From Lachnospiraceae bacterium (lineage in GTDB: Bacteria; Bacillota; Clostridia; Lachnospirales; Lachnospiraceae), in the NCBI GenBank assembly GCA_045603305.1, contig JAZULV010000004.1:1-52041 (forward strand): DNA of 52,041 nt. Reading direction: 5' to 3'. This document shows positions 23,895-50,889 of this stretch, piece by piece. Position numbers and translations under genes: made by a program. Positions within the stretch are counted from its first letter, which is position 1, and each line of letters starts with the position of its first letter. The notes under the pieces are model-generated. The model did no database searches. It was not told the DNA's origin and saw only the letters and a program-made list of their open reading frames with translations.

Positions 23895-23961
23895 AATCAT
23901 TCTCCTTTCAAAGAGCTGTGACATGGCTTACAGTTAATATATCATAGCTCTTTAGATTTTT

Positions 23962-24168
23962 CTATATTGCTTCCAATGTATCTACGAATTTCTCAAATTT
24001 TACTCGCTTAATTTGAACACGATTCCCATTCCAAAGAAGGTAATCTGCATTCTTATTCTGATTGATGAGTCTACGCAATTTATGCTCACCGATTCGAAAA
24101 TAAGCTGCTGCTTCCTCCACTGTTAAAGTATACTTCTCCCACAAAGGAACATTCTGACTATGCTTCAT
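23962..24168 (-). CDS. xis: Excisionase (Tn916 Xis-like)
   Basis: 68 aa reading [68 protein letters not shown]. It is collinear with Tn916 Xis ([33 protein letters not shown]...). Confidence 0.8.
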
Positions 24169-25237: not shown

Positions 25238-25281
25238 CAAAAGTGCATAAAAAATACCAGTGAAACTACAAGACTGTATTT
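25238..25281 (-). terminator. Strong Rho-independent terminator closing the minus-strand defence array
   Basis: On the minus strand, a 12-bp perfect stem ataccagtgaaa / tttcactggtat with a 14-nt loop is followed by U6. A second perfect palindrome, acttttggtca-cga-tgaccaaaagt, lies just downstream at 25209-25235. Confidence 0.6.
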
Positions 25282-30991: not shown

Positions 30992-30993
30992 AC

Positions 30994-34294: not shown

Positions 34295-37200
34295 GCTGAT
34301 TCAAGTCTAACAGTCGGTTTGGTAAGACTTTCTAATACAACGTCATATATTTCTTTCATCCTATCGTAATCTTCAAGTTCCTGATTATAGTATTCAGAAG
34401 TAGCAACCATTGATGTAAGAATTCTGTCCATCTCTGCTTTAGCCTCTGCCGTATGAGATCTTTCTCTAAGAACCTTTAATGCTTTATCCTTACTAACTTT
34501 TCTTGACTTCTTAACTAAATCTACCCATCTTTCCTGTGGATAAACACTTCTAAAATAGTCAATATTAGTGGCTCTATATTGAGAGAAGATATGTAAAAAT
34601 CCTTCATTCTTACTACGTCTTCCAAGATGATCAATATCATCCTTGCTACTCTCAAAATCACGCTGTAGCATCAGATTAAATTCTCTTATAACCTTATCAT
34701 CCGGTATTTCACCCTCAGCACGAATTCTCACAGGTACCTGTACCTGCTCTACCGCTAGATAGTTTCTAAATACACTCAAATAGGAAAGCGGAACTCCTTT
34801 TTCAATCAGCAGCCTTTCATTTGGATACAGTGACCATGTATAAACAAAACCAGTCCAATTTATACTTGACTTCATCGCAAAGGCTGCTGCCTGACCTCTA
34901 CAAGACCTCATTGCATTATCAACAATACAATCGAATATATCATCTCCAGGTGCAAAGAAGTGAATATAGTCGTTTTCAATTGCCTTCTTTCTACTAAAGG
35001 TACCATCAATCGACCGGCTATGATGCATTGTGTTTTTATCCTGCTTGTCCTGTCTTAATTCATGTATCTTACTAATAAACTGATTTTGTTTCTGTGCAAA
35101 ATATGAATCCCAATCCGGAGGAATTAGCAATGAATTTTCTGCAGATCTTGTTGAGAAGGAATTATCACTAAAACTAATAACCTCGTCCTTTTCCTCAACA
35201 TCTCTAAACCCTGCAAGCATTGCCCATTGAAGCATCGCATCCGCAAACATTTTATTTTCATTACGATTATAGTATTTAACCAAACTAATCAATTCCTGAT
35301 TCATCGGTCTATAGATATACGCCGCAGTATCAAAATGCTGTTCTTCACGCACTTCTTCTTTTAGCTTTGCTGATCTTTCAATTACATTCTGTATTTCATT
35401 TGTTAATCCAAATCTGAAATCTTTAATAATAGCTGATACTATCGCATTATTAATATCATTCATAATAATCTCTAATCCACTCAGAGAATGATTAAATATT
35501 TTCAATCCGTTGTTCCAGAACTTAAACAGCTCTTCTTCCAATGTTTCTTCTGCATAAGGAACCACAGATACGATAGGTCGTCCACTTTCTCTTCCCATAC
35601 GATCCAGTCGACCTATTCTCTGTTCTATTGCATTTGCATCCCACGGCAGGTCAATATGAACCACATAGTCCGCGCATTGGAAGTTTCTACCTTCTCCACC
35701 TGATTCATCACAAAGCATGATTGTACAATTCTTATCATTTTGAAATTTGCAAACATTAACCTCTAACTCATCAGCAGACATGCCTCTTCTAAAACAACTG
35801 AATCCGTCCTCTGTATAAAAGTCAGCAAGCATTTCTTCATATACTTCAAAAGTCTCTTTATAATTTGTAAATAACACAACTTTTGAATCAGTTGCATATT
35901 CATCAAGATAGTACATCGTCTGCACTATTCTAGAAGTATGTTCTTCTGGCTCATCCAGAACACCTACAATATTCTCGGCAATGTCCTGTTCATACATTTT
36001 CCATCTATGTAGATTTTCCTTCAGGCTATCCGGTATAACCACTCCATCTGCTTCCAAGAACTTAACCTGCTGTTCAAAAGCCCATGGTGAACTAAAGAAC
36101 GTACCAAAAAGAGGCTTGAATATCTTTTCAAATTTCTCTTCCGTTATTTCCTTTTCAGTAATCCATGTCACTAAATCCTGATATGCACCGTATTCATAAA
36201 AGTTTTTATCCGGATCTAAAGCATACGGAAGCGAAGTTAGCTGACGCTCCGGCAAATCTTCAAGTGTTTCTCTTCTATTTCTGATAATATTCTTTTCAAT
36301 CTGATAATTTTCACACAAGTACGAAATAGCAACTTTGAAATGATGAAGGCCCAAATCATCGTCATCAAAATCAGCCTTTTCATACATTTCTTTAAGCATT
36401 TCATCTCCTACGTTTTTATAAAGCTTTTTAAAACCGCTCAGAATATCCTCGTAGAAATCCTCGCTATCTTCATTATCATGCGGATTTTCTTCTGCCTCTA
36501 AAGAGTCTCTAAAAATCTCATCTAAATCCTCAATATTAGACAACACCATTGCTGCCACTTTAGTAATATTTCCTTGTTTTTCAACCAATTCATCAAATTG
36601 CTCTTTAGTACAAGAATCATACTTTTCAGGAAGAATCAAACGAAGTAAATCCAGATAATCTGTTCTCTTCTGCTGAACTGGCGTAGCACTAAGCAAAAGC
36701 AGATTTGTAGTGTTGCAACTCAGTCTATGGAACGCATCATAATATGCCTTATATCTTAACAATCTGTGTGCTTCATCAATTATTGTAAAATCCCATTGTT
36801 CTTTACATTCTCGATCAGCTGCTGTCTCTAGCTCTGCAAATGTAATAAAGTTATTATTCTCATTTTTTCCTTCATACAAGTCGAACTTTAAGAACAGCTC
36901 CGTTTTCCATTGTCCTAACAATGCCCCTGGAACAACAATCAATGCATTAACATCACTATGTCTTGAGAAATACACCTTCAAAACAGATGCTGCTTCGATA
37001 GTTTTACCCATACCAACCTCGTCAGCTAGCATATATCTGCAAACGTCATCCTGAAGACATCTCATAATAGACTTAAGCTGATGCGGCATTAGAAAAATCT
37101 TGCAACCCGCTAATTCTTTAAATCCCATAATAGAATTATCCAGAACATTCATTGTCTTTGTAACAATACTTCTACCAAACAGCCAGCAAGGATTTTGGAA

Positions 37201-37605
37201 TTCATAACCCTGCAACTGAGAAGCCGGATCCACTTTGCCTACCATGAATGGTGCTATAATTCGATTTTCCGGAACACAAATTAATGTTTTGTCATACTCG
37301 TTCTCAATATAATAATCATAGAATTCATCTTCCTTTTTTACACAGGCTACAACCTTATACTTCTCCTTCTCGTAGAGAACAATCGAGCCCACAAAGAACT
37401 GACATCTTTGAACCATTGATGTTGGAAGAGGCGCAGTTTTTGGGAAGTTGTCATAATACACTCGATAATTAAATGGGTCGTTAAAAACAACCTCGACAGT
37501 ATCTGCGTAACTATCTATTTTAGTAATCTGCCCCATCAAAAAATCACGCGGATTAATCATGTCATAATCAATCGGACAGCGTACATACATCTTCTCTAAT
37601 AACAT
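34267..37605 (-). CDS. SNF2/RAD54-family helicase (1112 aa)
   Basis: SNF2_N motifs LADEVGMGKTIEAASVL and TIIDEAHRL. The helicase-C motif is IDLPWDANAIEQRIGRLDRMGRESG. It has roughly 150-aa N-terminal and roughly 450-aa C-terminal extensions. RBS AAAGGATGAG. Confidence 0.85.
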   Translation of the reverse strand: MLLEKMYVRCPIDYDMINPRDFLMGQITKIDSYADTVEVVFNDPFNYRVYYDNFPKTAPLPTSMVQRCQFFVGSIVLYEKEKYKVVACVKKEDEFYDYYIENEYDKTLICVPENRIIAPFMVGKVDPASQLQGYEFQNPCWLFGRSIVTKTMNVLDNSIMGFKELAGCKIFLMPHQLKSIMRCLQDDVCRYMLADEVGMGKTIEAASVLKVYFSRHSDVNALIVVPGALLGQWKTELFLKFDLYEGKNENNNFITFAELETAADRECKEQWDFTIIDEAHRLLRYKAYYDAFHRLSCNTTNLLLLSATPVQQKRTDYLDLLRLILPEKYDSCTKEQFDELVEKQGNITKVAAMVLSNIEDLDEIFRDSLEAEENPHDNEDSEDFYEDILSGFKKLYKNVGDEMLKEMYEKADFDDDDLGLHHFKVAISYLCENYQIEKNIIRNRRETLEDLPERQLTSLPYALDPDKNFYEYGAYQDLVTWITEKEITEEKFEKIFKPLFGTFFSSPWAFEQQVKFLEADGVVIPDSLKENLHRWKMYEQDIAENIVGVLDEPEEHTSRIVQTMYYLDEYATDSKVVLFTNYKETFEVYEEMLADFYTEDGFSCFRRGMSADELEVNVCKFQNDKNCTIMLCDESGGEGRNFQCADYVVHIDLPWDANAIEQRIGRLDRMGRESGRPIVSVVPYAEETLEEELFKFWNNGLKIFNHSLSGLEIIMNDINNAIVSAIIKDFRFGLTNEIQNVIERSAKLKEEVREEQHFDTAAYIYRPMNQELISLVKYYNRNENKMFADAMLQWAMLAGFRDVEEKDEVISFSDNSFSTRSAENSLLIPPDWDSYFAQKQNQFISKIHELRQDKQDKNTMHHSRSIDGTFSRKKAIENDYIHFFAPGDDIFDCIVDNAMRSCRGQAAAFAMKSSINWTGFVYTWSLYPNERLLIEKGVPLSYLSVFRNYLAVEQVQVPVRIRAEGEIPDDKVIREFNLMLQRDFESSKDDIDHLGRRSKNEGFLHIFSQYRATNIDYFRSVYPQERWVDLVKKSRKVSKDKALKVLRERSHTAEAKAEMDRILTSMVATSEYYNQELEDYDRMKEIYDVVLESLTKPTVRLESACFVWMVKK

Positions 37606-37623: not shown

Positions 37624-40287
37624 TTAGTTTCTTCCATATTTGTATGGTTCCAAACAAATCTCTCTTACACCACAGTACTGACACCACTCATCACAAGATT
37701 TTGCACAGCCAGTTGCATTTACTCTGTTACTGCTTAATCTCGCATCGATTTCACCCTGCGGAACATCCTTAAAATACCCAAAGAAGCTTCCATCACCATT
37801 TCCAAGTTGAAGGTAAATGAACTCCTCACGTTTTTTCATATATATGTCATCCGTAGGACTTATCATTGGAAATGTAGTACCATTTTTAAGCACACTCTTT
37901 TGCAAATAGTTTTTTGCATTCGTAATAATATCCATACGCTCTGTGTGCATATCCTTAACAAACTCAAACTTTCGTTCAAGTTTTTTATACTCATCATTTA
38001 AAGTATCAAGCAACACATCCTCGGTAGCAATCTGTCCCTGCAACACAACTCTCGCCACATTCTCCAACAAAATCTCCAAGTATTTTAACAACAGAAAATG
38101 ATCCCTAAAAACTGCCCTCTTCTCAATTGTAGATTCCAACAAAAATCTGTATTTACATATCTTGTATCGGTAGAAATCATATTGTCCATAATTATTCTCT
38201 GTATTAAGTTCAAGGTGCAAATTTCTTACTGCTTTCGGTAAAGTTCCAGTAGGTTTATCTTTTGGATAAACTTTCTGAGCCTCCAATATCTTCAACAAAT
38301 AGAACATCTCATTCTCTTTATCATCAACATTTTTTACATAGCTTAACTTAAACTTTACCCTGTTAAACTGGAGCCCATATATCAACGCATATCTCTTAAA
38401 ATTCTTATACTCTCTTCTAGATTTAACATAAACCTGGTACTTCCAATCAATTGGATCTTGCGCAACTTCAAAGAAAGTCACGTCCAAAGGCCATGGAAAT
38501 CTATCTCTTCGAGTTACGTTCATATCGTTATCTGAAAGGCAGGCAAAATGATATATTATATCCTTATTCTGTTTTCTACTCTTTAAGATATCGCCATCAA
38601 TCTGCTCAAAATCTCTTACTATCCAATTTGCACTTATCCCCTTTTTAGTCTCCTGTTTCAGATAATAAGCCATTGTCTCTTTCAGCACATCAAAAGAACC
38701 TGTAGCGTCAATCTTATCAACCTCTTCCAAGCGAATGAGCACACGCTTTACTACATCTCTAAATTCATCTTCAATATCTTCCGCTTCAAGTATTCTTGTT
38801 TCAAGGAACTCTTTTATTCTCTTATAGAATTTTTTAAAGTTATTCTCTGTATCCTCAAAATCTGCATAAAATAGCTTTGTAATCTGATCCAGCTGCTCCA
38901 ATGCCGCAACTAATGTATCTATTTCCTCTGAAGTAACGTCAAAGTATACCAATCTACTACCTATGCGTTTTTCAGTTACATCTTTCTCAGCTTTTTTAAT
39001 TCGCTTCTTAAGCTTTCCTAATAGGTCAGTTATCTGATCAATGGTTTCCGCACGTACAAAAAATTCTTTTGTTCTGTTGAAAATAGAATAAAGCTTTCCA
39101 GGAGTTTCTTCTTTTATAAATCCTGAATTCAGACATTCTACAATATCATTCATATTTTCAATCTGAATTCCACCTTCCTCTGGATTCCACATATTCGTAA
39201 TGGAAAGAAAAAAATGTCCAATAGGATATGTCAGGAAATGACGTTCACCAAATTGTCCTGGGTAATAAATCTTGAGGATATTGTTTACGCTGTTATTAGC
39301 CGCATAGAATTGCTCTTGCATATAATAAAGCGTTGATCGCCTTACGTCTTTATCTCTTTCTTGGCGTTTCAATGCGTCCTCAAATACACTAGCAACATAG
39401 CTGGCAAACTCCGTATTATTATCAAACTCCATTACTTCAAAAGGACAATCTTCTTCATTTTCTTCCGGATGTCCCTCTATTAAATTTGCCATTCTATCTG
39501 CTAGCAAATTTCCTTCATAGCTATTCGTCAGCAATGGATTAGGCTTAAACTCATTCGTAAACTGACTTTTGATAGGCATGTCAAATGATGAATATACATC
39601 TATCCATGTCTGATATACATTCTTGTACTGCTGCTGATAATTGAACAAAAGAATTACTCTTTTATACTTTGCCACCAATTCAATAGTTTGAAGAATCATT
39701 GGCGAAAACTGATGTACTCCATGAATCACAATGGTATCTAAATCAACAGCACTTATGTCTGCGTCTTCACGTTCTAACTTCATGCCTTCTCGAATCGCAT
39801 TCTCGATTTCAGCTTCTGAAAAATGTCTTTTCAACGTAAAATCCTGAACCAAATCTGATTTTCTTATTATTCTATAAAGCTCTACAAGGTGGCGTTGTTC
39901 CTCTGTCAACAAATCAGTTCGCATTTCATCAAGGCTCATATCTAGTTCAAACAAAATGCGCAAACTATTACTGAGTTGCTTTCTATTGAATCTTAGCGAC
40001 TGCCTAATCTTTTCTGAATTATCCGTAATGTTCAATCTGGAGATAGCCTCATCTATCACGGTGTATTGCTTTATTTTGCATTCACTGCTTTCCCAATATG
40101 CAAAGAGTCCTTTTACCAAGTTCTCAACAGTAGATACTTTACCTGCTGTCATATCTTCGTACGTTCCCATCATTCCGTTTGCCATAGTTTGTGACACACA
40201 GAAATGAGGGCTATTTTTAATGGAATCCCAGTATAATTCTTTATTTATTTCATATGGATTGCTGTATGTATAAATAGAAAACGGCAT
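37624..40287 (-). CDS. Hypothetical 887-aa protein with a C-terminal Cys cluster that resembles the iron-staple of RecB-family nucleases
   Basis: RBS GGAGGTG. It has no P-loop. A lone Cys lies in HFACLSDNDM about 280 aa before the C-terminus, and the last 30 aa read GCAKSCDEWCQYCGVREIC, which contains C-x2-C-x5-C. That arrangement is used by AddB, Cas4 and Dna2 to frame a PD-(D/E)xK domain. The nuclease motifs themselves could not be confidently located by eye. Confidence 0.5.
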   Translation of the reverse strand: MPFSIYTYSNPYEINKELYWDSIKNSPHFCVSQTMANGMMGTYEDMTAGKVSTVENLVKGLFAYWESSECKIKQYTVIDEAISRLNITDNSEKIRQSLRFNRKQLSNSLRILFELDMSLDEMRTDLLTEEQRHLVELYRIIRKSDLVQDFTLKRHFSEAEIENAIREGMKLEREDADISAVDLDTIVIHGVHQFSPMILQTIELVAKYKRVILLFNYQQQYKNVYQTWIDVYSSFDMPIKSQFTNEFKPNPLLTNSYEGNLLADRMANLIEGHPEENEEDCPFEVMEFDNNTEFASYVASVFEDALKRQERDKDVRRSTLYYMQEQFYAANNSVNNILKIYYPGQFGERHFLTYPIGHFFLSITNMWNPEEGGIQIENMNDIVECLNSGFIKEETPGKLYSIFNRTKEFFVRAETIDQITDLLGKLKKRIKKAEKDVTEKRIGSRLVYFDVTSEEIDTLVAALEQLDQITKLFYADFEDTENNFKKFYKRIKEFLETRILEAEDIEDEFRDVVKRVLIRLEEVDKIDATGSFDVLKETMAYYLKQETKKGISANWIVRDFEQIDGDILKSRKQNKDIIYHFACLSDNDMNVTRRDRFPWPLDVTFFEVAQDPIDWKYQVYVKSRREYKNFKRYALIYGLQFNRVKFKLSYVKNVDDKENEMFYLLKILEAQKVYPKDKPTGTLPKAVRNLHLELNTENNYGQYDFYRYKICKYRFLLESTIEKRAVFRDHFLLLKYLEILLENVARVVLQGQIATEDVLLDTLNDEYKKLERKFEFVKDMHTERMDIITNAKNYLQKSVLKNGTTFPMISPTDDIYMKKREEFIYLQLGNGDGSFFGYFKDVPQGEIDARLSSNRVNATGCAKSCDEWCQYCGVREICLEPYKYGRN

Positions 40288-40290: not shown

Positions 40291-43200
40291 TTACACCTCC
40301 AGAAACTTACTCCAGCTCATATTGGATTTCTTGTCTGTATCCTTCATCCAGATACAATTTCTTATTGCTCTCGTCAATGCGACATAAAGTATTCTTGCCT
40401 CTTCACATATTCTCTGTCCGATTTCTTCCTGAGAATCATAATTTGAATTACAATCTTTTTTATTCTCATCAATCTTAATTGAGTACGCTAACTTCGAATT
40501 ACTATAATTGACATCTGTGTTTGCTTTTTTTAAATTATCAATAGCTTGACCAGTGAAAGGTAATATTACTGTCCCATATTCCAATCCCTTAGCCTTATGC
40601 ACGGTCGTGCAAAGAAATTTGATTCCTGTTTGATCTTCTGCAACAGCTCTTGCCAATTCTTGCTGCTTAGTTAAAATATTAATTTGAATGGAATTAGCAA
40701 TGACTGTTAATGTTAAATAATCAACACTATATGATTTAATTATTTTTTCAATCAAAAGCTCATAATTAGATTTATAGAATCTTTGCTTATCAACATCCTC
40801 GCTATACTTATTCCATGGTTTAAGCGTTTCAAATATCGCCTTCAGAACAACAAGAACTGGATTAGCCTGGACATACGCAACCAACTCATTCCAAGTCTTA
40901 TCCATCCTCGCCATAAAATACGTATCTAAAGCTTCAACCAATTTTTTTGTTTGAGAACTCTTGTCTTCATTCTGAAGTCCTTGATACAAGAGTGGCATAT
41001 CTACATAATTGGATTCCATAAAGTTAACAAGATACACCGGATTATCGGGATTCGTTAACGCCATCAAAAGCTTACAAAAATCAATGGTCGAATCTAACTG
41101 ATACAGGTCACCGCCGACCTTTGTTTCAATTTCAACCTCTTCATCCAACTCCTTGCATCCCTTTATAATTGTTTCAATCTGCCAATTTTCTCTTACAAGA
41201 ATGGCAATTGTCTTTTCCTCTTTGCTAAGCTTTCTCCTTTTCTCTAATTCAATAATTTTAGCTTTTTCTCTCTTGAGTAAACCAAGTAAAACTTCTAACT
41301 GTTCATCATTCTTTCCATGAAATGGAATACATTCAAACAATTCTTCCTCATTAGCACCGCCATTTAAATTACTCACTAAATGATCTGAATCATAAGTATA
41401 TGGAAGCCAAGCACTTGCTCCCATTCCTTGAAAGATTTCATCCATTATTTCAAGTAGTCTGGAATCTGTTCGATAATTCGTATTAATGGTATGCTCTTCC
41501 CATTTATCGGGAGTTGCATTAAGTCTCTTAAATGCACTTATTGTTGCCCCTCTGAAACGATAAATACTTTGCTTCAAGTCGCCAACAACAAACAAATTAC
41601 AGTTCTTACCAATAAGCTGCTGAATCTTCAAAAATGAATCTATTTGCGCATCATCAGTATCCTGAAATTCGTCAATAAAAATATATTTGTAATCTAAATG
41701 TGTTTTCTCCTTGTCTTTCTGGTTAACAACATCATTCAGAATTATCATCGTTTCTCGTAAATCTATCTTATTGCTTTCTTGAATCTTTGTTTCATACTCA
41801 AGTTCCGCAGCAATAATGACCTCCATTATTATTTCATTGAAGAAAGAAAGTAATCCTGGAGCCTGCCCCAACTCGTCTTCCCTAATCTTTTTTATATCAA
41901 TGCTCTTGTTGTAGAGCTGGTTTGAAAATTCTACTAGCATTCTTCTAAACTGATACAAAGGAAGTTTTATTTCATTTATAAAATTAGGATTTTCGGCTTC
42001 CTTCTTTGCAATAAAATCATTGAGATATCTCTCATATATCTGCTCTTTTACGTAGTCTCCAGACGTGATTGCAAAATTATCTCCTAAGCCCATTTGCATG
42101 GATGCTTCCTTAATAATTTCACGAGCAAACTTATGGATAGTTGAAATACGCATGAAGTCGATATCTTCTATATATTTCAAAAATTTCGGATTCGATGTTA
42201 GTACAAAATAATTAATAAACATCTGCTTAAGTCTATTCTTCATGTTGTCAGCTGCATCGTTTGTAAAAGTAACCATCGCAACATCATCAATCAGATTAAC
42301 TGTAGGATTCTCATATTTATTGCAGAGAAAAGCAATTCTTGAAACCATGGAATATGTTTTTCCGGTGCCTGCTCCTGCTCTAACCAAGATGTTTTTTTCC
42401 GGAGAGGCATGTTCAATAAAATACTGCTGAATATTGAAAGGGCTTTTTTCTGCCAATCTCTCCAACAACTGTCTTTCTTCTGGTGTACATTCTCCTTCAT
42501 ATATTGTTGCGGATTCATCAAGTATATCTGCCAAATCTTCTACAACATACAATTCAAAATTAAATATTCTAAATACATTATTCTTTACTGAAAACTCATT
42601 GTCTGCATCTTTTTTTAATTTAAGATTATTCTTCTCTGCTAATATTCCCTTCTCGTTGAGCTCTCCCTCTAAAACATAAAGAATAGAGTCAGCCATATCT
42701 TCAGATGATACGAAAACAACCGTCTTTGTTCCTTTCAAATATCCATCTACAATATCGTGAATTTGCCTCTTCACAAACTTCTTAGTATTAGCTACAACCA
42801 CAGAATAAGGAACCTGATTGCCAAGTTCAAATGGCTTTTTCATCTGAAAATGTGGTTCAAAATGCTGCCTGATTTTTCCCATCAAATCATCATCCATTTC
42901 CGCGTGAGGAATGGATTTACACTGATTATATGCGTTAAGCAACTTGTCACCTAAACGCATAGAATCTGACAAATCTTCCTTGAAAATCGTTAATGTTTCT
43001 TCAGATACAATGTCTAACCTTTTTTCGTAGTATTCCTTCTTTGAAATAAATGGATAACATACTAAATCAAATATTAATGGACTTACATTGTATTTATCAC
43101 TTATCAAGTTTAATAATCCAAATCTGTAGGCTCTAGCTTGCTTCTTAGGCGATTTTTCAGGTTTTTCATATCCCTGAACAATAATCTCATCAACACCGGC

Positions 43201-43407
43201 TACATCAAAAATACTCTCTGCAAGCCAACCCTTCACCTCGATAATGATCATTCCAACATTCTTCATAAGAATGCAGAAATCAAACTCTCTTCCATTTACT
43301 TCACGGCCATTGTATACAATAGCCTCTCCCGGAAGATTATCAGAAAGACTCTCCCATACTTTTCCTTCGCCTTTATATTCAGGTTTTTTATCAATCATTA
43401 TAGCCAT
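40291..43407 (-). CDS. UvrD/PcrA-type SF1 helicase with an N-terminal NERD (nuclease-related) domain
   Basis: The track starts on TTG. An ATG at about 43407 (MAIMIDKKPEY) follows a GGGGGT RBS. The N-terminus (FDFCILMKNVGMIIIEVKGW) is a NERD/PD-(D/E)xK-like EVK motif. Helicase motif I is RAGAGTGKTYSM, motif II is IFIDEFQDTD, and motifs V-VI are CTTVHKAKGLEYGTV ... YVALTRA. Confidence 0.8.
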   Translation of the reverse strand: MAIMIDKKPEYKGEGKVWESLSDNLPGEAIVYNGREVNGREFDFCILMKNVGMIIIEVKGWLAESIFDVAGVDEIIVQGYEKPEKSPKKQARAYRFGLLNLISDKYNVSPLIFDLVCYPFISKKEYYEKRLDIVSEETLTIFKEDLSDSMRLGDKLLNAYNQCKSIPHAEMDDDLMGKIRQHFEPHFQMKKPFELGNQVPYSVVVANTKKFVKRQIHDIVDGYLKGTKTVVFVSSEDMADSILYVLEGELNEKGILAEKNNLKLKKDADNEFSVKNNVFRIFNFELYVVEDLADILDESATIYEGECTPEERQLLERLAEKSPFNIQQYFIEHASPEKNILVRAGAGTGKTYSMVSRIAFLCNKYENPTVNLIDDVAMVTFTNDAADNMKNRLKQMFINYFVLTSNPKFLKYIEDIDFMRISTIHKFAREIIKEASMQMGLGDNFAITSGDYVKEQIYERYLNDFIAKKEAENPNFINEIKLPLYQFRRMLVEFSNQLYNKSIDIKKIREDELGQAPGLLSFFNEIIMEVIIAAELEYETKIQESNKIDLRETMIILNDVVNQKDKEKTHLDYKYIFIDEFQDTDDAQIDSFLKIQQLIGKNCNLFVVGDLKQSIYRFRGATISAFKRLNATPDKWEEHTINTNYRTDSRLLEIMDEIFQGMGASAWLPYTYDSDHLVSNLNGGANEEELFECIPFHGKNDEQLEVLLGLLKREKAKIIELEKRRKLSKEEKTIAILVRENWQIETIIKGCKELDEEVEIETKVGGDLYQLDSTIDFCKLLMALTNPDNPVYLVNFMESNYVDMPLLYQGLQNEDKSSQTKKLVEALDTYFMARMDKTWNELVAYVQANPVLVVLKAIFETLKPWNKYSEDVDKQRFYKSNYELLIEKIIKSYSVDYLTLTVIANSIQINILTKQQELARAVAEDQTGIKFLCTTVHKAKGLEYGTVILPFTGQAIDNLKKANTDVNYSNSKLAYSIKIDENKKDCNSNYDSQEEIGQRICEEARILYVALTRAIRNCIWMKDTDKKSNMSWSKFLEV

Positions 43408-43428
43408 GACGTTTACCCCCAATGTACA

Positions 43429-44247
43429 TTACTCAAAGAAGTCCTCATTAATCTTATACACTGTATAGGTCTGAACCTTTTCAAGTCCAATACCATACTT
43501 AATCATCAATTCTGCGAGCAAATCCCCATCTATAAGTTTCAAACTTTTCTGCTGCTGTTTTTCAGCATAATTTCTTGCTTCTTTTGTAAATGAAGACGTT
43601 GTAATAAACACACCTTTTTGAACATCCTGCATAGCACCAACAAAAGCCTGTAACAACGGTCTTCCAACTGTATTACTACTATCATTTCTTTTTGCCTGAA
43701 TATATATCTTACTTAATCCAAGCTTGTCCTCATATATTACGCCGTCAATACCACCATCATGAGATTTACCTAATACACGACCCGACAATTCATCCGAGCC
43801 ATATCCCATTTCAAGTAACAAATTAACCACTAACCGTTCAAAGAAACTTGGGTGACATTCCATAATATGATCCAAAATTTGTCGTTTCATGTTACTCTTA
43901 TAGAAATGATACGTACGATCTATCTTTTCTTCTGGTAACAAGTCGTCCTCTGACACCAGTTTTTCTTTCTCCTCTTCCTTTTCAGTCGAGTTCTCTTGTC
44001 CTTCCTTTACTAATGCATAAAGATTCCTTGTTCCCTTCTGTCCTACAATATGAAAATATTTAACCGGCGATGCACCAGGGAAGTCCAACCCCTCACAATG
44101 ACAACGTAGTTTCGCATTGACTGCCGCCTCTGGATCCTTAGCCCCAAACTGGTATAAGTTCCTCTCTTTAATTTTTAAATACGCTTCTTTATATGTTAAA
44201 CTCTCATTTTCTTTTAGAACTTCAACCAATGCATCTACAATTCTCAT
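43429..44247 (-). CDS. Mrr-like restriction endonuclease (N-terminal winged-helix plus Mrr_cat PD-(D/E)xK)
   Basis: 272 aa with RBS GAAGGTGA. The catalytic region is GGIDGVIYEDKLGLSKIYIQAKR, a D...QxK Mrr-type core. It lies 11 nt downstream of dndA in the same orientation. Confidence 0.7.
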   Translation of the reverse strand: MRIVDALVEVLKENESLTYKEAYLKIKERNLYQFGAKDPEAAVNAKLRCHCEGLDFPGASPVKYFHIVGQKGTRNLYALVKEGQENSTEKEEEKEKLVSEDDLLPEEKIDRTYHFYKSNMKRQILDHIMECHPSFFERLVVNLLLEMGYGSDELSGRVLGKSHDGGIDGVIYEDKLGLSKIYIQAKRNDSSNTVGRPLLQAFVGAMQDVQKGVFITTSSFTKEARNYAEKQQQKSLKLIDGDLLAELMIKYGIGLEKVQTYTVYKINEDFFE

Positions 44248-44258: not shown

Positions 44259-45452
44259 CTACACTTCTTCTCTTAATACCTTTATCAGCTGATTAATATC
44301 TGCTTCTGTCGTATGTTTATTAAGCGATATTCTTAATACCTTTGAAACCTTGTCTTTCAACCCCAATGCAGTTATTACATATGACGGTTCTCCTGCACTA
44401 CATGCAGAACCTGCTGATAATGCTATTCTGTCGCTTATATGCTTTATAAACCTTTCATTATTGAAATCCTTCTTATCGACCACTATACTTATAATTCCGG
44501 GCAATCTCTTCTCTGATAGGTTTGTTAATGATATATCTGGTAACGTCTTTAATCCAGCAACAAGCATCTGATCAAACTGTAAAATCTTCTGTTCATTTGT
44601 ATCGAAATCCCTCATTGCAATGTCTGCAGCTTTACCAAAACCTACAATATTATGAACTGCTAAAGTCCCAGCCCTAAACCCATTTTCCTGTTCACCACCA
44701 TGCATAAATGCAGTAATTGGAGGAATACCATACGCATCACTTTTAATAAATGCTGCTCCTATTCCTTTGGGGCCATAAATCTTGTGCGCTGAACACGAAG
44801 CAAAATCCAATCCCATCGCATGAACATCAATAGCCATTTTCCCTATTGCTTGTGTTAGGTCAGAATGAATTGCAATACCCTTCATTGAACACATCTTAGC
44901 AATTCCAGAGACATCACTAATAGTACCAACTTCATTATTCACATAGATAACAGAAACCATTGCGGTGTTATTCTTTAGCGCTTCCTCTATAGTTGTAACA
45001 AGTATTTCTCCCGTTTCAGTAATACCAACAAAAGAAGCTTCATATCCTCTGTCTACAGATTTTCTCCCACCAAACAATGTTACAGTAGGATCATTATTAG
45101 AATACAAATCACCATTAAGGAATTTGCACGTATTCAATGTGGCCTTATGTTCTGCAACAGATGTAATGATATGGTTCTTTCCATCTCCGTAGTAACGTCG
45201 ATAATCCATATAACCTTTAATAATAAAATTTGTGCTTTCTGTTGCACCTGCTGTAAAAATTATTTCTTCTGGATTAGCTCCCAACAGTTTTGCAACCTGA
45301 ACACGTGCATTTTCTACTGCATTATGAGCGTTAACTGCCTTGCAATAATACTTACTTGAAGGATTGCCATATTCTTCTCGGAGATAAGGGAGCATTGCCT
45401 CCAACACTTCCTCATCCACCGGAGAAGTTGCACTATTATCCAAATAAATCAT
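44259..45452 (-). CDS. dndA: Cysteine desulfurase (NifS/IscS-like), the DndA role in DNA phosphorothioation
   Basis: 397 aa starting MIYLDNSATSPVDEEVLEAMLPYLREEYGNPSS. It has the PLP-lysine region and the active-site Cys loop LSAGSACSAG. Its start overlaps the dndE stop (ATGA). Confidence 0.85.
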   Translation of the reverse strand: MIYLDNSATSPVDEEVLEAMLPYLREEYGNPSSKYYCKAVNAHNAVENARVQVAKLLGANPEEIIFTAGATESTNFIIKGYMDYRRYYGDGKNHIITSVAEHKATLNTCKFLNGDLYSNNDPTVTLFGGRKSVDRGYEASFVGITETGEILVTTIEEALKNNTAMVSVIYVNNEVGTISDVSGIAKMCSMKGIAIHSDLTQAIGKMAIDVHAMGLDFASCSAHKIYGPKGIGAAFIKSDAYGIPPITAFMHGGEQENGFRAGTLAVHNIVGFGKAADIAMRDFDTNEQKILQFDQMLVAGLKTLPDISLTNLSEKRLPGIISIVVDKKDFNNERFIKHISDRIALSAGSACSAGEPSYVITALGLKDKVSKVLRISLNKHTTEADINQLIKVLREEV

Positions 45453-45829
45453 ACAGTATCACCTACTCCTAATACTTGAAGTATGTATTTATCCATGCTT
45501 CCAGCATGATTATACATATCAAGTAGTAATTCACTACCCCTATCAATGTGTGCCTTAACATACTTCGGAAAAAATTCTTCCTCCGGCAAATATCTTCCTT
45601 CAACTTCTTCAATCAAAACCTTGAAATATGTTTCATTATCACCTGTAATTGTCTGCCTGTTAAGATCCAATCCGTCTGAATCAGATTCATAATCTGCAAC
45701 TGAAGAATTCTCTTTCAAAGACCACGCTATTGCATGTTTTACCAAAGTATATGGTTTATAGTTTGTTCTATTTTCTAACTCTTGGAATATTTCCTGAGTT
45801 CTCTTTGATGTTTTTAATCTGAATATCAT
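45449..45829 (-). CDS. dndE: DndE-like small protein
   Basis: 126 aa starting MIFRLKTSKRTQEIFQELENRTNYKPYTLVKHAIAWSL. Its size and its position between dndD and the desulfurase fit DndE. Confidence 0.7.
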   Translation of the reverse strand: MIFRLKTSKRTQEIFQELENRTNYKPYTLVKHAIAWSLKENSSVADYESDSDGLDLNRQTITGDNETYFKVLIEEVEGRYLPEEEFFPKYVKAHIDRGSELLLDMYNHAGSMDKYILQVLGVGDTV

Positions 45830-45832
45830 TGC

Positions 45833-47977
45833 TTACACCTCAAAAAAATAATGTTGTTCTACAGTAGTTCTGTTTTGACTCTCATCATTTATAAGAAGAT
45901 ATTCCTTAGCAATATATGGCTTTATAATCTCGTAATACTCTTCATTTATTTCTTCATCGGTTGAAAGAATTACTACCTGTTTGCTGATATTAGGGAAGAA
46001 CTTCTCTGATATCTCTTTTCTATGGTTAGCATCGATACGCGCATAAGGAGTATCAATAACAAACGGTATATCCTTGCCCGACATTTCTATAATTGCCCAA
46101 TACAATGACAATATAAATATCTGACGTTCACCCTTTGACAAGCGACTAATATCTATACGCTTATACAAATCATAGCTACCACGCTGCGTGTCACACTCTA
46201 TTGCCTGTTGCAATTGTAGAACAGTCTTCGCCTTATACTTTTCACAAAGGATCTTCATTCCCTGCTTTCCAATTTCAAATGCAAACACTTCTTTCCCAAG
46301 ATTCTTCATTAAATAAAGTAATTCTGTGGCACTGTACTTAACATTTTGATAAAGGTTGAATTGAAAATCATCCTCTATTTCGATATGTGTAATTAAATTA
46401 TTCTTTCTATAAATATGCTGTAATTTCTCTACTATCAGTTTTTCAAGTTTACATTTGATCGACTCCGATTTATTATCAAGCATCTTTCCCATCATTTGAG
46501 ACAAGCCCATACTCAATTCAAATATATGTTTATTCTGAGCGTTATCCTTAATACCTTGAAATGCTCGGTCTCTTTGCTGAATTGCTACTGCCAGTTCCTC
46601 TTTCAAAGTTGTTAAACTAATCTCTGCATCATGAATTCTTGACAAAATCTCTTCTTTCTTTTTTAGCAGCGCATTTTCTTTTTCCGCAAACTTCCCTGCA
46701 TCTTCGTCTGTCATCGCACTCTTCAAAATGCGGTTGATTTCCATAGTTCTATCAGCAGCTTCCCGTCTTTTTTCAACCAACTCTACCATTTCCGCAACTT
46801 CAAAATCATCAATCGCAGAAATCATTGCGCTTACTCGACCGTAGTCTTCCTTAGATAGGTCATGCACAGGCTGTGCACCTTCTTTAAAGCCCTTCGGTTT
46901 AAACTTCCTAAGCAAGAATTCCATCAATGCATCAACAGTATCATCACTAACTTCCTGATTCGCATTAAGTGTATTCTGAATTTCCTGTCTCTTTAATTTT
47001 TGCTGAACATAATAATAGATTTCACCTTTTTCCTCAAAATCTAATTGTTCAGAAATTTTTCCTGTAAAATCGCGAAGGATATAAAAAGGCATCAATCCTT
47101 CAACAAACATTTTGATTTTTGTAAGGGTTTCCGTTTTAATATGTTCAGCTTCTGAATACTCTTTCAGAAGTGACTGTCGTTCGATTTCTGTTATTCCTCC
47201 GGCATTCTTAAAGGCACTCTCAACCTCAATCAATTCCGTTTCAATTTTCTCTAACTCACTTCTATCCGCTACAAGTTGAGATTCTAACGCTGAATAGTTT
47301 GTCTCTATTTCCTCTGCATTTCTACGCAGCTCTTCATATTGTGTATATATTTCTTCTTCATCATTACTTAAAGCTTTTCCCGCATATCCTGTTGTATACT
47401 TTCTAATAATTTCAAAGATATCTAATCCACACAAAGTATAAACTGCATTTTTGACGTAAGAGTTGTATGTGCTCGTCGAGAAAATGCTTCCAACTTCCTC
47501 ACCATCGAACAAGAAAAATTCAAACAAGTCCGGTGGAATCATACCCTGTAAATAGTTCTGGAAATATGACAACTCTTGATTATCTAATATACGACCTTCT
47601 GTTTTAACATAATACTTTTCTTCTAATTTGTGTTTTGTATAATCCCACGCTCTTGTTATCTCGTATTCTTTAACTTCTCGCTCAACCATCAAAGATACAA
47701 ATATCTGAACTCTTGATTCGACAACATCTTTCTGAAAAGATTTAGAATTAATGCAATCCTTGATTTTTGCAATATACGTAGGATTAACACCCACATAACC
47801 AAATGATAATGGTCCATATAGCGCTATCTTAATAGCAGAAAATAACGAGGTCTTTCCCGCTCCATTCTTTCCACCAATCAGAATAATGTTTTTACTATTA
47901 TCATCACTTGTGAAGTCAAACTCATTCAATCCTTCATAGGAGTTGAAATTATATAACACTATTTTATTTATTTTCAT
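45833..47977 (-). CDS. dndD: DndD, SMC/ABC-like ATPase of the DNA phosphorothioation system
   Basis: The track start is TTG. An ATG at about 47977 (MKINKIVLYNF) follows AAGGAG. Walker A is IGGKNGAGKTSLFSAI. There are long coiled-coil segments. The C-terminus has LSKGERQ (signature-like), PFVIDTP (Walker B) and ARID (D-loop). Confidence 0.85.
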   Translation of the reverse strand: MKINKIVLYNFNSYEGLNEFDFTSDDNSKNIILIGGKNGAGKTSLFSAIKIALYGPLSFGYVGVNPTYIAKIKDCINSKSFQKDVVESRVQIFVSLMVEREVKEYEITRAWDYTKHKLEEKYYVKTEGRILDNQELSYFQNYLQGMIPPDLFEFFLFDGEEVGSIFSTSTYNSYVKNAVYTLCGLDIFEIIRKYTTGYAGKALSNDEEEIYTQYEELRRNAEEIETNYSALESQLVADRSELEKIETELIEVESAFKNAGGITEIERQSLLKEYSEAEHIKTETLTKIKMFVEGLMPFYILRDFTGKISEQLDFEEKGEIYYYVQQKLKRQEIQNTLNANQEVSDDTVDALMEFLLRKFKPKGFKEGAQPVHDLSKEDYGRVSAMISAIDDFEVAEMVELVEKRREAADRTMEINRILKSAMTDEDAGKFAEKENALLKKKEEILSRIHDAEISLTTLKEELAVAIQQRDRAFQGIKDNAQNKHIFELSMGLSQMMGKMLDNKSESIKCKLEKLIVEKLQHIYRKNNLITHIEIEDDFQFNLYQNVKYSATELLYLMKNLGKEVFAFEIGKQGMKILCEKYKAKTVLQLQQAIECDTQRGSYDLYKRIDISRLSKGERQIFILSLYWAIIEMSGKDIPFVIDTPYARIDANHRKEISEKFFPNISKQVVILSTDEEINEEYYEIIKPYIAKEYLLINDESQNRTTVEQHYFFEV

Positions 47978-49355
47978 CTTCAATCTCCTTTAGAATTTCA
48001 TGATGAAGCCATTGCTGATTAAGCAAACGTTCCAAAGCATCCTTCATAATTTTTTGATTCGAATAATTTTTATTATGATAAACAGAAAGAATTACATTTC
48101 TAACCAAATCAAATGGAACATCGTTTGCTTCTGCTAATCTCTCTAATTCATCTACAGTCTCTTTATCAATCAGAGGTTCTTTATACTGATCCCATGGTAA
48201 TTTCTCGCCGGTTAGCTCTTCGTATAACTCGACAAGCGTTCGTCTTGAAAGATCTAATTCATCATCCCATATCTCATCAATTGCTTTAAGTTCTTCCTGA
48301 GTGATGAGTTCGTATCCCATTTGTTGCTGAGTTTCTATTAGCTTTGTCAAAATTAGCTTTCTGGCCTCCCAGGTAAATGGGCCATAGCCCATCTCTCCCG
48401 TCTTTGTTTCATAGACAGTTCCGTTCCTTCGCTTTTTCTCACGGTATTCATCTTTATCACGAATACTCATAATCCAAGTTCTAAATTCTGCTAAAGGAAT
48501 CAATTCTCTATGACCACTCCTGATAAATCCATTTAATGATTTATCATCTTTAACAACAGTACACACCCAACATCCAAATCTAGAATTACCACATGACTGT
48601 GTCTGCCCACCAGCATTAGCTCCTGCAAAAGGACATTCTCCACTATCCGCATCAGCATATAACGCGACAAGTTCATTATTGTTAGAACCCCAAGGTGTTT
48701 TCCCGCCATCAAGCTTTAAAAGAACATCCCAAACATCATCTGTTGTCAATTCGACTATTGGATTATATACATACGCATCTTGAATTGTTTCATGTCTATT
48801 CATCAAACGATTAGCTAATTCTCTACCTTCAATACGCCTTCTACGCGCTTCACTTTCAGCTTTTCGAACGCCTAGAAGAACAACAACCTCTTCACCTTCT
48901 TTTTTTATCACATCCCTAATATAATCAGCACTAGGATTAATCTTAAGCCTATCCGTACACCATCTAAAAGTTCCATTCATTCTTGGCGTTGGAAACCCTC
49001 GACCTATTACATTTGCCCAAAATGAGTTATCTGCTGGTGGTGTTACCATCGTAGAAATAACAGGCAACTCATCTTTGGCTGCAGCGTCACCAAGAAGTTT
49101 ATTCATTTTATTGAGATATATTTTTATCAAAGGATTCTCAATAAGTGTATCTGAAGAAACAATATAAACACTCTTATTTCTTTCCTCTTTCGGAAGGGTT
49201 AATAACATCTTATAAACCAATTCAACGACGGTCGTAGAATCCTTTCCTCCGCTATATCCAATTACCCAAGGGCGCTTATCCGACTGATAAACATACTTAA
49301 TCTCTTCTATCAGTTCCTCTAGCGTATTCTCATTAAAATAACTATTCGTTGCCAT
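47964..49355 (-). CDS. dndC: DndC, PAPS-reductase-like PP-loop ATP pyrophosphatase with a Cys cluster
   Basis: 463 aa with GYSGGKDSTTVVEL (PP-loop SGGKDS) and DSGECPFAGANAGGQTQSCGNSRFGCWVCT (Fe-S Cys cluster). RBS GAGGTAG. It overlaps dndD by about 14 nt. Confidence 0.9.
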   Translation of the reverse strand: MATNSYFNENTLEELIEEIKYVYQSDKRPWVIGYSGGKDSTTVVELVYKMLLTLPKEERNKSVYIVSSDTLIENPLIKIYLNKMNKLLGDAAAKDELPVISTMVTPPADNSFWANVIGRGFPTPRMNGTFRWCTDRLKINPSADYIRDVIKKEGEEVVVLLGVRKAESEARRRRIEGRELANRLMNRHETIQDAYVYNPIVELTTDDVWDVLLKLDGGKTPWGSNNNELVALYADADSGECPFAGANAGGQTQSCGNSRFGCWVCTVVKDDKSLNGFIRSGHRELIPLAEFRTWIMSIRDKDEYREKKRRNGTVYETKTGEMGYGPFTWEARKLILTKLIETQQQMGYELITQEELKAIDEIWDDELDLSRRTLVELYEELTGEKLPWDQYKEPLIDKETVDELERLAEANDVPFDLVRNVILSVYHNKNYSNQKIMKDALERLLNQQWLHHEILKEIEDENK

Positions 49356-49689
49356 CGTTACTACCTCGATGCTGAGCGACTTGGCTTAGTAGTCCAAGAC
49401 TCAACTCTTTCCCTTCGTCATCCATTTGCTTTATATAACTTAATATTTTGCGTTCAACATCATCTGCATCATCATTAAAAAATTCTCTTCCCACTAATTG
49501 ATCAAGTGAAATATTATATATGTCCGCAATCTTTTTAAGCTGTTCAATATCTGGGGTCGTAACTCCCCTCTCAATGTTGCTTATCACTTGCTGTGATACA
49601 TTCAGCCTTTCAGCCAGCTCCATTTGCTTAAGTTTTTTGCTTTTTCTTATTTCTGCTAATCGTTTTCCTATAGTCTGCATATCTTTCAT
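49342..49689 (-). CDS. XRE-family HTH regulator overlapping the start of dndC. It is the likely regulator of the array and stands in place of dndB.
   Basis: 115 aa with the HTH IGKRLAEIRKSKKLKQMELAERLNVSQQVISNIERG. Its 3' end overlaps dndC by 14 nt. Confidence 0.75.
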   Translation of the reverse strand: MKDMQTIGKRLAEIRKSKKLKQMELAERLNVSQQVISNIERGVTTPDIEQLKKIADIYNISLDQLVGREFFNDDADDVERKILSYIKQMDDEGKELSLGLLSQVAQHRGSNDGNE

Positions 49690-49887
49690 TCTCCATCAAA
49701 ACAAAGGATACAATAGGGCATATTTTACCCAGTTTGCACAGTTATACCGAATACAAATTATACACGAAAAGCTCAATAAATACAACAAAATTACGTATAT
49801 TCGCCCTTGACCAACAATATTATTGTATTTTATAATATATACAAACTTTTTGTTAGTCGTTACAAAGAAAAGGAGGATAAAACAAAA

Positions 49888-50889
49888 ATGATTTGTAAAA
49901 AATGCCAAGAAAAACTTACTCCCAATAATACTTATCCATCAGACCACCGATACTGCATAACATGTGGTAAGGAACATACCGAACACCTCTCTGAACGTAG
50001 ACAAACCTTATTATCGTTACGCGAAATGAATTTGGAATCTAAAATTATTCAAACCAAGTACCTAATAAAATGTGCCATTAGGGAATTCGGACTTGACAAA
50101 GTGTATATATCATATTCTGGCGGTAAAGATTCAACAGTTCTTTCCCATATTGCCAAAAGCATATACCCCGATATCTTACACTTGTTTGCTAATACAACAA
50201 ACGAATATCCCGAAACCATCCAACATATCAAGTGGGAAAAGGACGAAAATGGAACAAATATCATTTCCGTCCTTCCCATAGATTGCCACGGAGAACTTTG
50301 GACTTTTAAAAAAGTTGTCGAGCGATATGGATATCCGATGTTCTCCAAGCGGGTGTCTAATGCTATACGAACATATCAACATGCACTTTCCGAACGTACA
50401 AAGCAGAATTCACAAAATTACATCGATCGGAACTTTAAAAAGTATGATAAGTACAAAGATCTACCAATATCTGATAAGTGTTGTGATAAATTAAAAAAGG
50501 AACCTCTTCGTCGAAAAGCTAAAGAACTCGGATTAGAATGTGCTATCTTAGGCATACTTGCCTCCGAAAGTTACCAACGTGAAAAAGATTGGTTAGAACA
50601 TGGTTGCAACGTATTCCACAAACGAAATGATAATCAAAGTCGTCCATTATCTTTTTGGACTGATGAGGATATCCTCGAATACATCGCCAAATACGATGTT
50701 AACATTCCCAAACTCTATGAGATGGGCTATAACAGAAATGGCTGTATGTATTGCGGTTTTGGCGTTCATTTAGAACCTTCACACTGCAATAGATTCCAAA
50801 AGCTAAAGCAAACACATCCAACTCAATATACCTATTTTCTAAATAACTTTGGACAACTTATGCTTGAATTCGAGATAAATATTGTATAA
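49888..50889 (+). CDS. Zinc-ribbon plus PAPS-reductase-like (PP-loop) protein, divergent from the HTH/dnd operon
   Basis: The track start (49807) is TTG. A real ATG at 49888 follows AAGGAGGA. The N-terminus has CKKCQEKL...CITCGKEH (a C4 ribbon). It then has YISYSGGKDSTVL (PP-loop) and C-terminal Cys residues (NGCMYCGF). Confidence 0.75.
   Translation: MICKKCQEKLTPNNTYPSDHRYCITCGKEHTEHLSERRQTLLSLREMNLESKIIQTKYLIKCAIREFGLDKVYISYSGGKDSTVLSHIAKSIYPDILHLFANTTNEYPETIQHIKWEKDENGTNIISVLPIDCHGELWTFKKVVERYGYPMFSKRVSNAIRTYQHALSERTKQNSQNYIDRNFKKYDKYKDLPISDKCCDKLKKEPLRRKAKELGLECAILGILASESYQREKDWLEHGCNVFHKRNDNQSRPLSFWTDEDILEYIAKYDVNIPKLYEMGYNRNGCMYCGFGVHLEPSHCNRFQKLKQTHPTQYTYFLNNFGQLMLEFEINIV

Follow-up and report, generated by a model that had tools for sequence, protein, structure and literature searches.

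What stands in for the regulator DndB in a phosphorothioate-modification cluster that lacks dndB, and where does such a cluster come from? These questions are raised by a dnd locus in a Lachnospiraceae bacterium (assembly GCA_045603305.1), which we analyzed within a 52,041-nt stretch of contig JAZULV010000004.1; we refer to this whole stretch as the window, and all coordinates are positions in it. On the minus strand of the window, a gene for an XRE-family helix-turn-helix (HTH) regulator is followed by dndC, dndD, dndE, and dndA in close-packed order. An initial annotation, made from the letters alone, had remarked on this C-D-E-A order without dndB and with an XRE gene at its head, and had taken it for an archaeal type of system. 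Our analysis confirms the arrangement and points to another origin. The explanation that we favor, with a probability of roughly 0.7, is that the XRE-headed dndCDEA genes form the front of a 14-gene defense operon on an island in Clostridia.

The four dnd genes encode a complete and apparently active phosphorothioate-writing module. The gene dndC (47964..49355, minus strand, 463 aa) encodes a PP-loop sulfurtransferase that scores 420 bits against TIGR03183 (cutoff 290; PADLOC DndC E = 2e-139) and retains its catalytic motifs, SGGKDS and the cysteine cluster CGNSRFGCWVC. An SMC/ABC-type ATPase of 714 aa with an intact Walker A motif (GKNGAGKT) is encoded by dndD (45833..47977, minus strand, with the longest open reading frame (ORF) reaching 47983; TIGR03185, 342 bits, cutoff 246). 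The 126-aa product of dndE (45449..45829, minus strand) matches PF08870 at 88 bits (cutoff 25; E = 7.5e-25) and scores under the cutoff of TIGR03184. The class V cysteine desulfurase encoded by dndA (44259..45452, minus strand, 397 aa; PF00266, E = 3e-73) likewise remains under the equivalog cutoff of TIGR03235 (356 bits, cutoff 480); its SAHK and SAGSAC motifs are intact, so that the pyridoxal phosphate-binding lysine and the active-site cysteine are both there. DndA as the cysteine desulfurase, DndC as the sulfurtransferase, DndD as the ATPase, and DndE as the DNA-binding protein would jointly write the phosphorothioate. This modification has been detected in gut Clostridiales isolates that carry dndCD, with or without dndBE, and in Lachnospiraceae isolates with dnd genes (PMC12914056).

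The junctions between these genes are tight. The 3' end of the HTH gene overlaps the dndC start (ATG 49355) by 14 nt, and the dndC stop codon starts 11 nt inside dndD (total overlap 14 nt), counted from ATG 47977, which has AAGGAG 7 nt upstream and yields a 714-aa product that matches the length of its homologs. The last codons of dndD contain GAGGTG, the ribosome-binding site (RBS) of dndE, about 6 nt before the dndE ATG (45829); the two genes are separated by 3 nt, and dndE and dndA meet in an ATGA with a 4-nt overlap. The initial annotation was right to place the dndC stop 11 nt within dndD and the dndE RBS in the dndD C-terminus, whereas the strict stoichiometric coupling that it read into these junctions goes too far: such overlaps are ordinary operon compaction and recur clade-wide, and coupling beyond ordinary translational coupling is not supported. 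Its 14-nt overlap between the XRE gene and dndC stands as well, and the 115-aa length that it gave for the XRE protein should probably be 112 aa. The HTH gene most likely starts at ATG 49680 (49342..49680, minus strand) rather than with the longest ORF at 49689, because a GGAG lies 10 nt upstream of ATG 49680 and only 1 nt from the upstream ATG. A length of 112 aa is also that of the called HTH homologs and of the gene call in the source record (P0241).

To place the locus among its relatives, we used a DndC scan with one genome per species, which returned 80 loci at 38-95% DndC identity; these were annotated by phmmer, with the window proteins plus the DndB and DptFGH proteins of a Priestia megaterium plasmid as queries. 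Close DndC homologs are extremely common in gut metagenomes, and the relatives at 95% identity are Acetatifactor/Lachnospiraceae metagenome-assembled genomes. In the Clostridia clade, every one of the 51 complete loci (counted at species level) has the order C-D-E-A without an upstream dndB. The order dndB-C-D-E-A is found in Bacillales, on the Priestia plasmid, and in Clostridium sp. N3C; gamma-proteobacterial loci have dndB-C-D(-E) with dndA not adjacent, and two haloarchaeal loci (L074 and L087) have C-D-E-A followed by a second DndD-like gene, which is the pbe arrangement. In a tree of DndC, the window lies deep inside a Clostridia-only clade, with Clostridium sp. N3C, which carries dndB, as the closest outgroup; the archaeal loci group with those of Chloroflexi and gamma-proteobacteria. 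Percent identities give the same picture for each of the four Dnd proteins, with the Clostridia clade closest and N3C and Bacillales next (DndE: N3C 46%, Bacillales median 38%, Archaea median 28%; DndA: 48%, 42%, and 37%, respectively). The tree, these identities, and the nearest outgroups with dndB-C-D-E-A together indicate that dndA in last position is a general Bacillota trait and that the loss of dndB is clade-wide and not peculiar to this genome. C-D-E-A would then be the ancestral Bacillota order (B-C-D-E-A in Bacillales), from which dndB was lost or replaced, with no archaeal import. Within the clade, DndD is the fastest-diverging of the proteins (loci L012-L075: median identity to the window 49.5%, compared with 76.5% for DndC and 83% for DndE).

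The absence of DndB from the window, as claimed initially, is borne out: PF14072 matches no window ORF of at least 100 aa in the Pfam search, and the Priestia DndB query gave nothing under E = 3 in all six frames of the window by tblastn and phmmer. The accompanying premise that bacterial dnd loci usually carry dndB, which made its absence seem special, does not survive. DndB is reported from only ~51-52% of taxa with the Dnd modification module (PMC10853773), so that about half of the Dnd-bearing taxa lack it, and in the literature it is regarded as a non-essential regulator or repressor that is often missing. A Dnd cluster without dndB is not rare and has already been documented. The only DndB in the Clostridia clade is that of Blautia glucerasea (L061, 15188-16474), a genuine one (PF14072, 131 bits) that follows dndA in the order dndC-D-E-A-B.

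What may regulate the cluster instead is suggested by its head. The HTH protein (Pfam HTH_3, E = 2e-17) matches HTH_VI, capH, and Control_protein (the last at E = 3e-5) in PADLOC, and its best NCBIfam matches are RstR-family phage repressors (72 bits) and antitoxins, all below cutoff. Divergently from it lies a gene for a PP-loop protein like 3'-phosphoadenosine-5'-phosphosulfate (PAPS) reductase (PAPSr; 49888..50889, plus strand, 333 aa; Pfam PAPS_reduct, E = 1e-24). The protein has a zinc ribbon (CxxC...CxxC) at its N-terminus, the motif SGGKDS, and a CMYCG at its C-terminus. PAPSr and DndC do not cross-match at E ≤ 1e-3, and PAPSr is not a close DndC paralog. It starts at ATG 49888 (RBS AGGAGGA; 333 aa like its homologs) and not at TTG 49807, which is part of the -35 box of its promoter. 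The HTH gene directly precedes dndC in 28 of the 51 Clostridia loci, either overlapping it or ending at most 4 nt away, and the divergent PAPSr is present in 30, in 27 together with the HTH gene and in 3 without it. Because this head is joined to varied downstream modules (the window type, DptFGH, pbe-like, GmrSD, or none), the HTH gene appears to belong to, and to travel with, the modification genes. When searched from the HTH side, the homologs examined all precede dndC, including the most abundant one (>1500 index blocks), and one called protein (P0030) is an HTH-DndC fusion.

The control region comprises the 207 bp between the two divergent starts, for which we aligned 28 distinct intergenic sequences. 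It contains a 44-bp palindrome, which we call O1 (49812..49855; TAACAA-N5-TTGTAT-N10-ATACAA-N5-TTGTTG in the window and TAACAA-N5-TTGTAT-N10-ATACAA-N5-TTGTTA as aligned across the 28 sequences); in some loci (L046, L030, and L016), one N5 linker is the reverse complement of the other. O1 covers the plus-strand promoter of PAPSr (-35 TTGACC at 49807-49812, 18-nt spacer, -10 TATAAT at 49831-49836; 11 out of 12 consensus matches). A second candidate operator, O2 (49780..49798, minus strand; ATACG-N8-TTGTAT), overlaps the -35 box (TTGTAT, 49785-49780) of a putative dnd promoter with a 17-nt spacer and a perfect -10 TATAAT at 49762-49757. Both the position and the half-sites of O2 are conserved in the alignment; O2 is unique in the window, as is the inner arm pair of O1 (expected 0.07). 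The inner palindrome of O1 occurs upstream of dndC in 22 out of 28 loci with the HTH gene and in 0 out of 47 loci without it, those with PAPSr only included, and the 1.4 Mb of locus sequence contain just one further copy. This co-occurrence with the HTH gene makes O1 a strong operator candidate. We propose two palindromic operators with TTGTAT/ATACAA half-sites as the binding sites of the XRE protein, which would repress PAPSr from O1 and, from O2 over its own -35 box, would autoregulate the dnd operon. Such autoregulation is likely on the evidence of position and palindromes, and the XRE repressor would thereby fill the role that DndB has in proteobacterial clusters. The suggestion in the initial annotation that the XRE protein is an alternative regulator is thus plausible, given its conserved position in 28 of 51 loci and the co-occurring palindrome over promoters. 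A literature search on dndC with an XRE regulator found no description of this pairing. The presumed 5' leader of the mRNA for HTH and the dnd genes also contains a small GC-rich hairpin (49716-49730, minus strand; GGGTAAAATATGCCC) that is conserved in close relatives and was called terminator-like in our scan; attenuation or stabilization of the RNA are conceivable roles.

The unit extends past dndA. Whereas the initial annotation had limited it to HTH-C-D-E-A, another gene begins only 11 nt further on, and the co-directional run continues for 19 kb to position 25393 with nine further genes at gaps or overlaps of at most ~26 nt. This outlines a minus-strand operon of ~24.3 kb and 14 genes (49680 to 25393), presumably read as a single transcript. 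A strong terminator-like hairpin with a 13-bp stem follows the last gene (25218..25246, minus strand), and terminator-like sites inside the operon show no enrichment over shuffled sequence. The first gene after dndA encodes an Mrr-type PD-(D/E)xK restriction nuclease (43429..44247, 272 aa; Mrr_cat, E = 5e-33) with a weak N-terminal HARE-HTH match (E = 0.007, below cutoff). Seven genes follow, all on the minus strand like the rest, which we refer to as the cassette. They start with a fusion of a NERD nuclease and a UvrD/RecB-type superfamily 1 helicase (40291..43422, ~1038-1043 aa; Pfam NERD, UvrD-helicase, and UvrD_C, with a Walker A motif) and an 887-aa protein, p887 (37624..40287), that carries a C-terminal Cas4/AddB-type cysteine signature with invariant cysteines C711...C869-x2-C872-x5-C878. 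p887 has no significant match in Pfam, NCBIfam, PADLOC, or the PDB sequence profile; its AlphaFold model is of low confidence (pLDDT 56), and the best PDB folds for this model are AddB chain B, PcrA, and RecC. Because of the cysteine signature and these fold matches, which serve as supporting evidence only, the NERD-UvrD helicase and p887 look like an AddAB-type pair, with p887 as the AddB/RecC-like partner.

The remaining five genes of the cassette resemble part of the Dpd system. They encode a DpdE-like SNF2 helicase (34267..37605, 1112 aa; NF041062 over its full length at 359 bits, cutoff 500; PADLOC DpdE E = 2e-77), a DpdF-like DEAD/RecQ-type helicase (31793..34294, ~826-833 aa; NF041063 at 462 bits, cutoff 550; PADLOC DpdF E = 3e-109), the 264-aa p264 in the DpdG position (30994..31788), a DpdH-like large ATPase (27872..30997, 1041 aa; NF041065 at 336 bits, cutoff 450; PADLOC DpdH E = 6e-50), and the 221-aa p221 in the DpdI position (27213..27878). 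p264 aligns over its full length (BLASTP E = 2e-18) with the DpdG-position protein of the Paenibacillus plasmid pART37, and p221 is similar in its C-terminal part to the proteins that follow DpdH in Paenibacillus (E = 5e-8) and Nostoc (E = 7e-5). The operon closes with the gene for a 597-aa nuclease of the GmrSD family with DUF262 and DUF1524 domains (25393..27186; GmrSD_N E = 1e-32, GmrSD_C E = 3e-17), a DGQQR motif, and a PADLOC match to 'Orf5' (E = 5e-185), with weaker SspE matches. According to the literature, the N-terminal (DUF262) domain of GmrSD falls into one ParB-like superfamily with DndB, and we considered whether this terminal protein is a DndB in disguise; it matches GmrSD_N and GmrSD_C and has no PF14072 match, and the idea was rejected. 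In the most abundant variant of the locus (L098-L102, also L014, L024, L027, and L046), a gene for a 657-aa DUF262 protein with GmrSD_N only lies between dndE and dndA.

The linkage of this cassette to the dnd genes was followed in a metagenome scan anchored on p887, which returned 80 loci at 37-93% identity. The cassette order (NERD-UvrD, p887, DpdE, DpdF, p264, DpdH, p221) is invariant in all 80, and of the 59 loci whose upstream sequence reaches far enough, 52 have dndA as the immediate neighbor on that side. We propose that Mrr, the seven-gene cassette, and GmrSD are the likely restriction arm, which would act on DNA without phosphorothioate. That these genes restrict in a phosphorothioate-dependent way has, judging from conservation and linkage, slightly better than even odds. 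More tentatively, and with the odds rather against it, XRE-dndCDEA and the cassette could be an undescribed type of phosphorothioate-dependent restriction beside the DndFGH, PbeABCD, and SBD-HNH/DndI effectors, in which a Dpd/BREX-like motor complex would have exchanged deazaguanine for backbone sulfur as its self mark, and which would be abundant, as the cassette-bearing locus is, on mobile islands of human-gut Lachnospiraceae and Ruminococcaceae. Literature searches on DpdE and DpdF with phosphorothioate, and on DpdE, DpdF, and DpdJ, found no description of a Dnd-Dpd-like hybrid.

The operon lies on an integrated, low-GC island. At the island edge, we found a Tn916-type tyrosine integrase (22827-23924, with its C-terminal part at 22686-22823, minus strand; Pfam Integrase_DNA and Phage_integrase) and an excisionase-like gene of 68 aa (23962-24168, minus strand), left of which lie housekeeping genes (metK, gatAB). 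The GC content is 35.9% in the island and 40.4% in the flank, and that of third codon positions is 30% and 40%, respectively. The integrase, the excisionase, and this GC shift support horizontal acquisition, as the initial annotation had proposed. An in-frame stop at 22827-22829 interrupts the integrase, whose catalytic C-terminal part (…LDTYTH…) is encoded by the following ORF; this may mean that the island is immobilized, or the stop may be a sequencing error. A tRNA scan for an attachment site found none. Outside the island, the minus-strand housekeeping genes of the chromosomal stretch are interrupted by a single plus-strand block (15942-17551), in which a second, unrelated XRE HTH gene (199 aa) is followed by two small ORFs without family matches.

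Several observations weigh against the explanation that we favor. The -35 box of the putative dnd promoter is weak (3 out of 6 consensus bases), the promoter scan did not call this promoter, and the palindromes could be bound by a factor other than the HTH protein. In addition, 23 of the 51 Clostridia loci keep dndCDEA without the HTH gene, which shows that the regulator is dispensable. A DndB may act in trans from elsewhere in the source genome, since Blautia glucerasea, a member of the same clade, has a genuine one. The DndC tree is a midpoint-rooted neighbor-joining tree with no bootstrap. Moreover, the cassette occurs without upstream dnd genes in six loci of a subclade at ~40% identity (L156 and L161-L165), where its upstream neighbors are a relaxase, MatE, DnaJ, and a WYL regulator (a WYL/WCX regulator in L165), and Blautia producta (L095; CP035945.1, 4127955-4150618) keeps a full-length cassette while its HTH-dndC region is disrupted by insertion sequences. 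This last locus is degenerate, with HTH and dndC replaced or disrupted beside transposase genes, dndD truncated, and Mrr split.

These observations bear on how other explanations compare. The one that gains most from them holds that dnd is a solitary epigenetic module and that Mrr, the cassette, and GmrSD are independent systems stacked in a defense island. The loci with the cassette and no dnd, beside unrelated genes, and the cassette retained in Blautia producta despite its disrupted dndC fit this idea, as do the Paenibacillus plasmid with a related DpdE-I-like block, DpdJ, and DpdK but no dnd, the existence of solitary dndCDEA clusters (for example, in Clostridium sp. CAG:81), and the argument made in PMC10853773 that Dnd modification and restriction modules are frequently uncoupled. 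However, dndA is immediately upstream in 52 of 59 cassette loci across 37-93% identity, the spacing is operon-like (gaps of 11 nt and ~20 nt) with no intervening terminator, and the accepted phosphorothioate partners DndFGH and PbeABCD show a similar partial decoupling, which together leave independent stacking a serious though doubtful explanation.

The role of the HTH protein can also be read differently. C proteins of type II restriction-modification (R-M) systems are timing switches, and they are the basis on which the HTH protein would be compared with a switch that delays or limits restriction genes on entry into a new host instead of setting the phosphorothioate level. A small XRE gene that comes first in its operon and overlaps the next gene, with palindromic boxes upstream, a Control_protein match in PADLOC, and a mobile island around it, is what such a switch would look like. 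Yet the HTH gene also precedes dndCDEA in loci without detectable restriction genes (L019 and L049) and in loci with differing restriction modules, and the genes directly behind it encode modification enzymes and no nuclease; we therefore consider a timing function unlikely. Far less probable still is that the HTH gene is the repressor or antitoxin of a mobile element that came to lie beside dndC by chance: despite the ubiquity of the XRE family and the RstR-type phage repressors and antitoxins among its below-cutoff NCBIfam matches, the pairing recurs in 28 species-level loci with varied flanks and downstream modules, the most abundant homolog stands before dndC, and in P0030 the two are fused. 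The transfer of an archaeal-type DndCDEA(-PbeABCD) system into a Gram-positive host, as first envisaged, has the smallest probability of all. The initial annotation was right that archaeal dndCDEA clusters without dndB exist (PMC6459918), the two haloarchaeal loci show this order with a second DndD-like gene, and some Oscillospiraceae within the Clostridia clade carry a pbe-like second DndD. Against this, the window has neither PbeC nor a pbe cassette, all four Dnd proteins are nearer to those of Clostridia, N3C, and Bacillales (for DndE, 46% and 38% versus 28% in archaea), and the comparison of archaeal and bacterial DndC clades that had been put forward as a check groups the window with Clostridia and then with Bacillota dndB-CDEA loci, the archaeal loci branching with Chloroflexi and gamma-proteobacteria. 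These comparisons largely refute an archaeal transfer, and the archaeal precedent does not apply here. An XRE-headed dndCDEA at the front of a Clostridia defense operon thus remains the explanation that we prefer.

C-D-E-A without dndB is the ordinary Clostridia version of Dnd, and the "archaeal order" with which the locus was first framed is unremarkable. Of more consequence may be the 112-aa XRE protein and the two palindromes in the 207-bp region, a circuit that apparently replaces DndB in a clade very common in the human gut and that gives a way to study how phosphorothioate levels are controlled where DndB is missing. The consistent linkage of dnd to a Dpd-like/AddAB-like cassette suggests a further phosphorothioate-reading restriction partner, and the cassette illustrates the swapping of restriction motors between DNA-modification chemistries. 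Both the regulator and the cassette are relevant to gene flow and to phage resistance among gut Firmicutes.

Compared with the DndBCDE/DndA-DndFGH systems of Salmonella, E. coli B7A, and Streptomyces and of the Priestia megaterium plasmid pBMG4 (L011), the locus has orthologous DndC, DndD, DndE, and DndA in a similarly tight operon, and the Bacillales DndBCDE clusters likewise run C-D-E-A after dndB. It differs from them in having neither DndB nor DndFGH/DptFGH, with XRE and the divergent PAPSr upstream and other nucleases and helicases downstream. We rejected the presence of DptFGH: the Priestia DptF, DptG, and DptH queries gave no phmmer match in the window, and PADLOC reported only DndF at 0.0005 on the DpdH-like protein. 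The C-D-E-A order without dndB is shared with DndCDEA-PbeABCD (Xiong et al., 2019; PMC6459918), from which the window differs in lacking pbeABCD, in Dnd proteins that are not specifically archaeal-like, and in the presence of the XRE regulator. There is a single DndD-like ORF in the window and no second one that could be PbeC; models of PbeB and PbeD have no window matches, and the only PbeA matches, which are weak (best E = 5e-13), fall in the DpdF-like protein, within its helicase C-terminal domain. The C proteins of type II R-M systems, and XRE- or WYL-type defense-operon regulators such as CapH and BrxR, share with the XRE gene a small HTH encoded first and overlapping the next gene, and palindromes at its own promoter. 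In sequence, the resemblance goes no further than the XRE family; the regulated genes in the window begin with modification enzymes, and its operators are candidates known from their sequence.

The downstream genes have their own counterparts. A HARE-HTH and restriction endonuclease protein immediately downstream of Dnd genes, with NERD nucleases nearby, has been described (Rakesh, Aravind & Krishnan, 2024; PMC10853773), and the window conforms to this, with Mrr after dndA and NERD next; the XRE/PAPSr head and the AddB-like and DpdE-I-like cassette do not appear in the paper's main text. On plasmids, the cassette has its nearest relatives on pART37 of Paenibacillus sp. 37 (L092, 365959-400220), which carries two DpdJ, DpdK, and DpdE/F/G/H/I-like genes; the 34 kb examined there contain neither dpdABC nor dnd. 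Relative to the Dpd (7-deazaguanine) system with its restriction genes dpdD-K (Thiaville et al., 2016; PMC5699537), the window lacks DpdA/B/C, which insert the deazaguanine, as well as DpdJ and DpdK, and has the NERD-UvrD and AddB-like pair instead. No window ORF matches DpdA (TGT), DpdB (DndB-like), or DpdC (DUF328/DUF6884), and the DpdJ (YprA helicase) and DpdK (PLD nuclease) of Paenibacillus and Nostoc have no BLASTP match among the window proteins; without dpdABC, dpdJ, or dpdK, membership in the Dpd system was rejected. The DpdE-, DpdF-, and DpdH-like proteins all score under the NCBIfam equivalog cutoffs and are thus homologous yet outside the curated families. With dnd as the neighboring modification genes, what the window does share with Dpd is the E-F-G-H-I order, the full-length alignment of these three proteins, and a small protein at each of the places of DpdG and DpdI.

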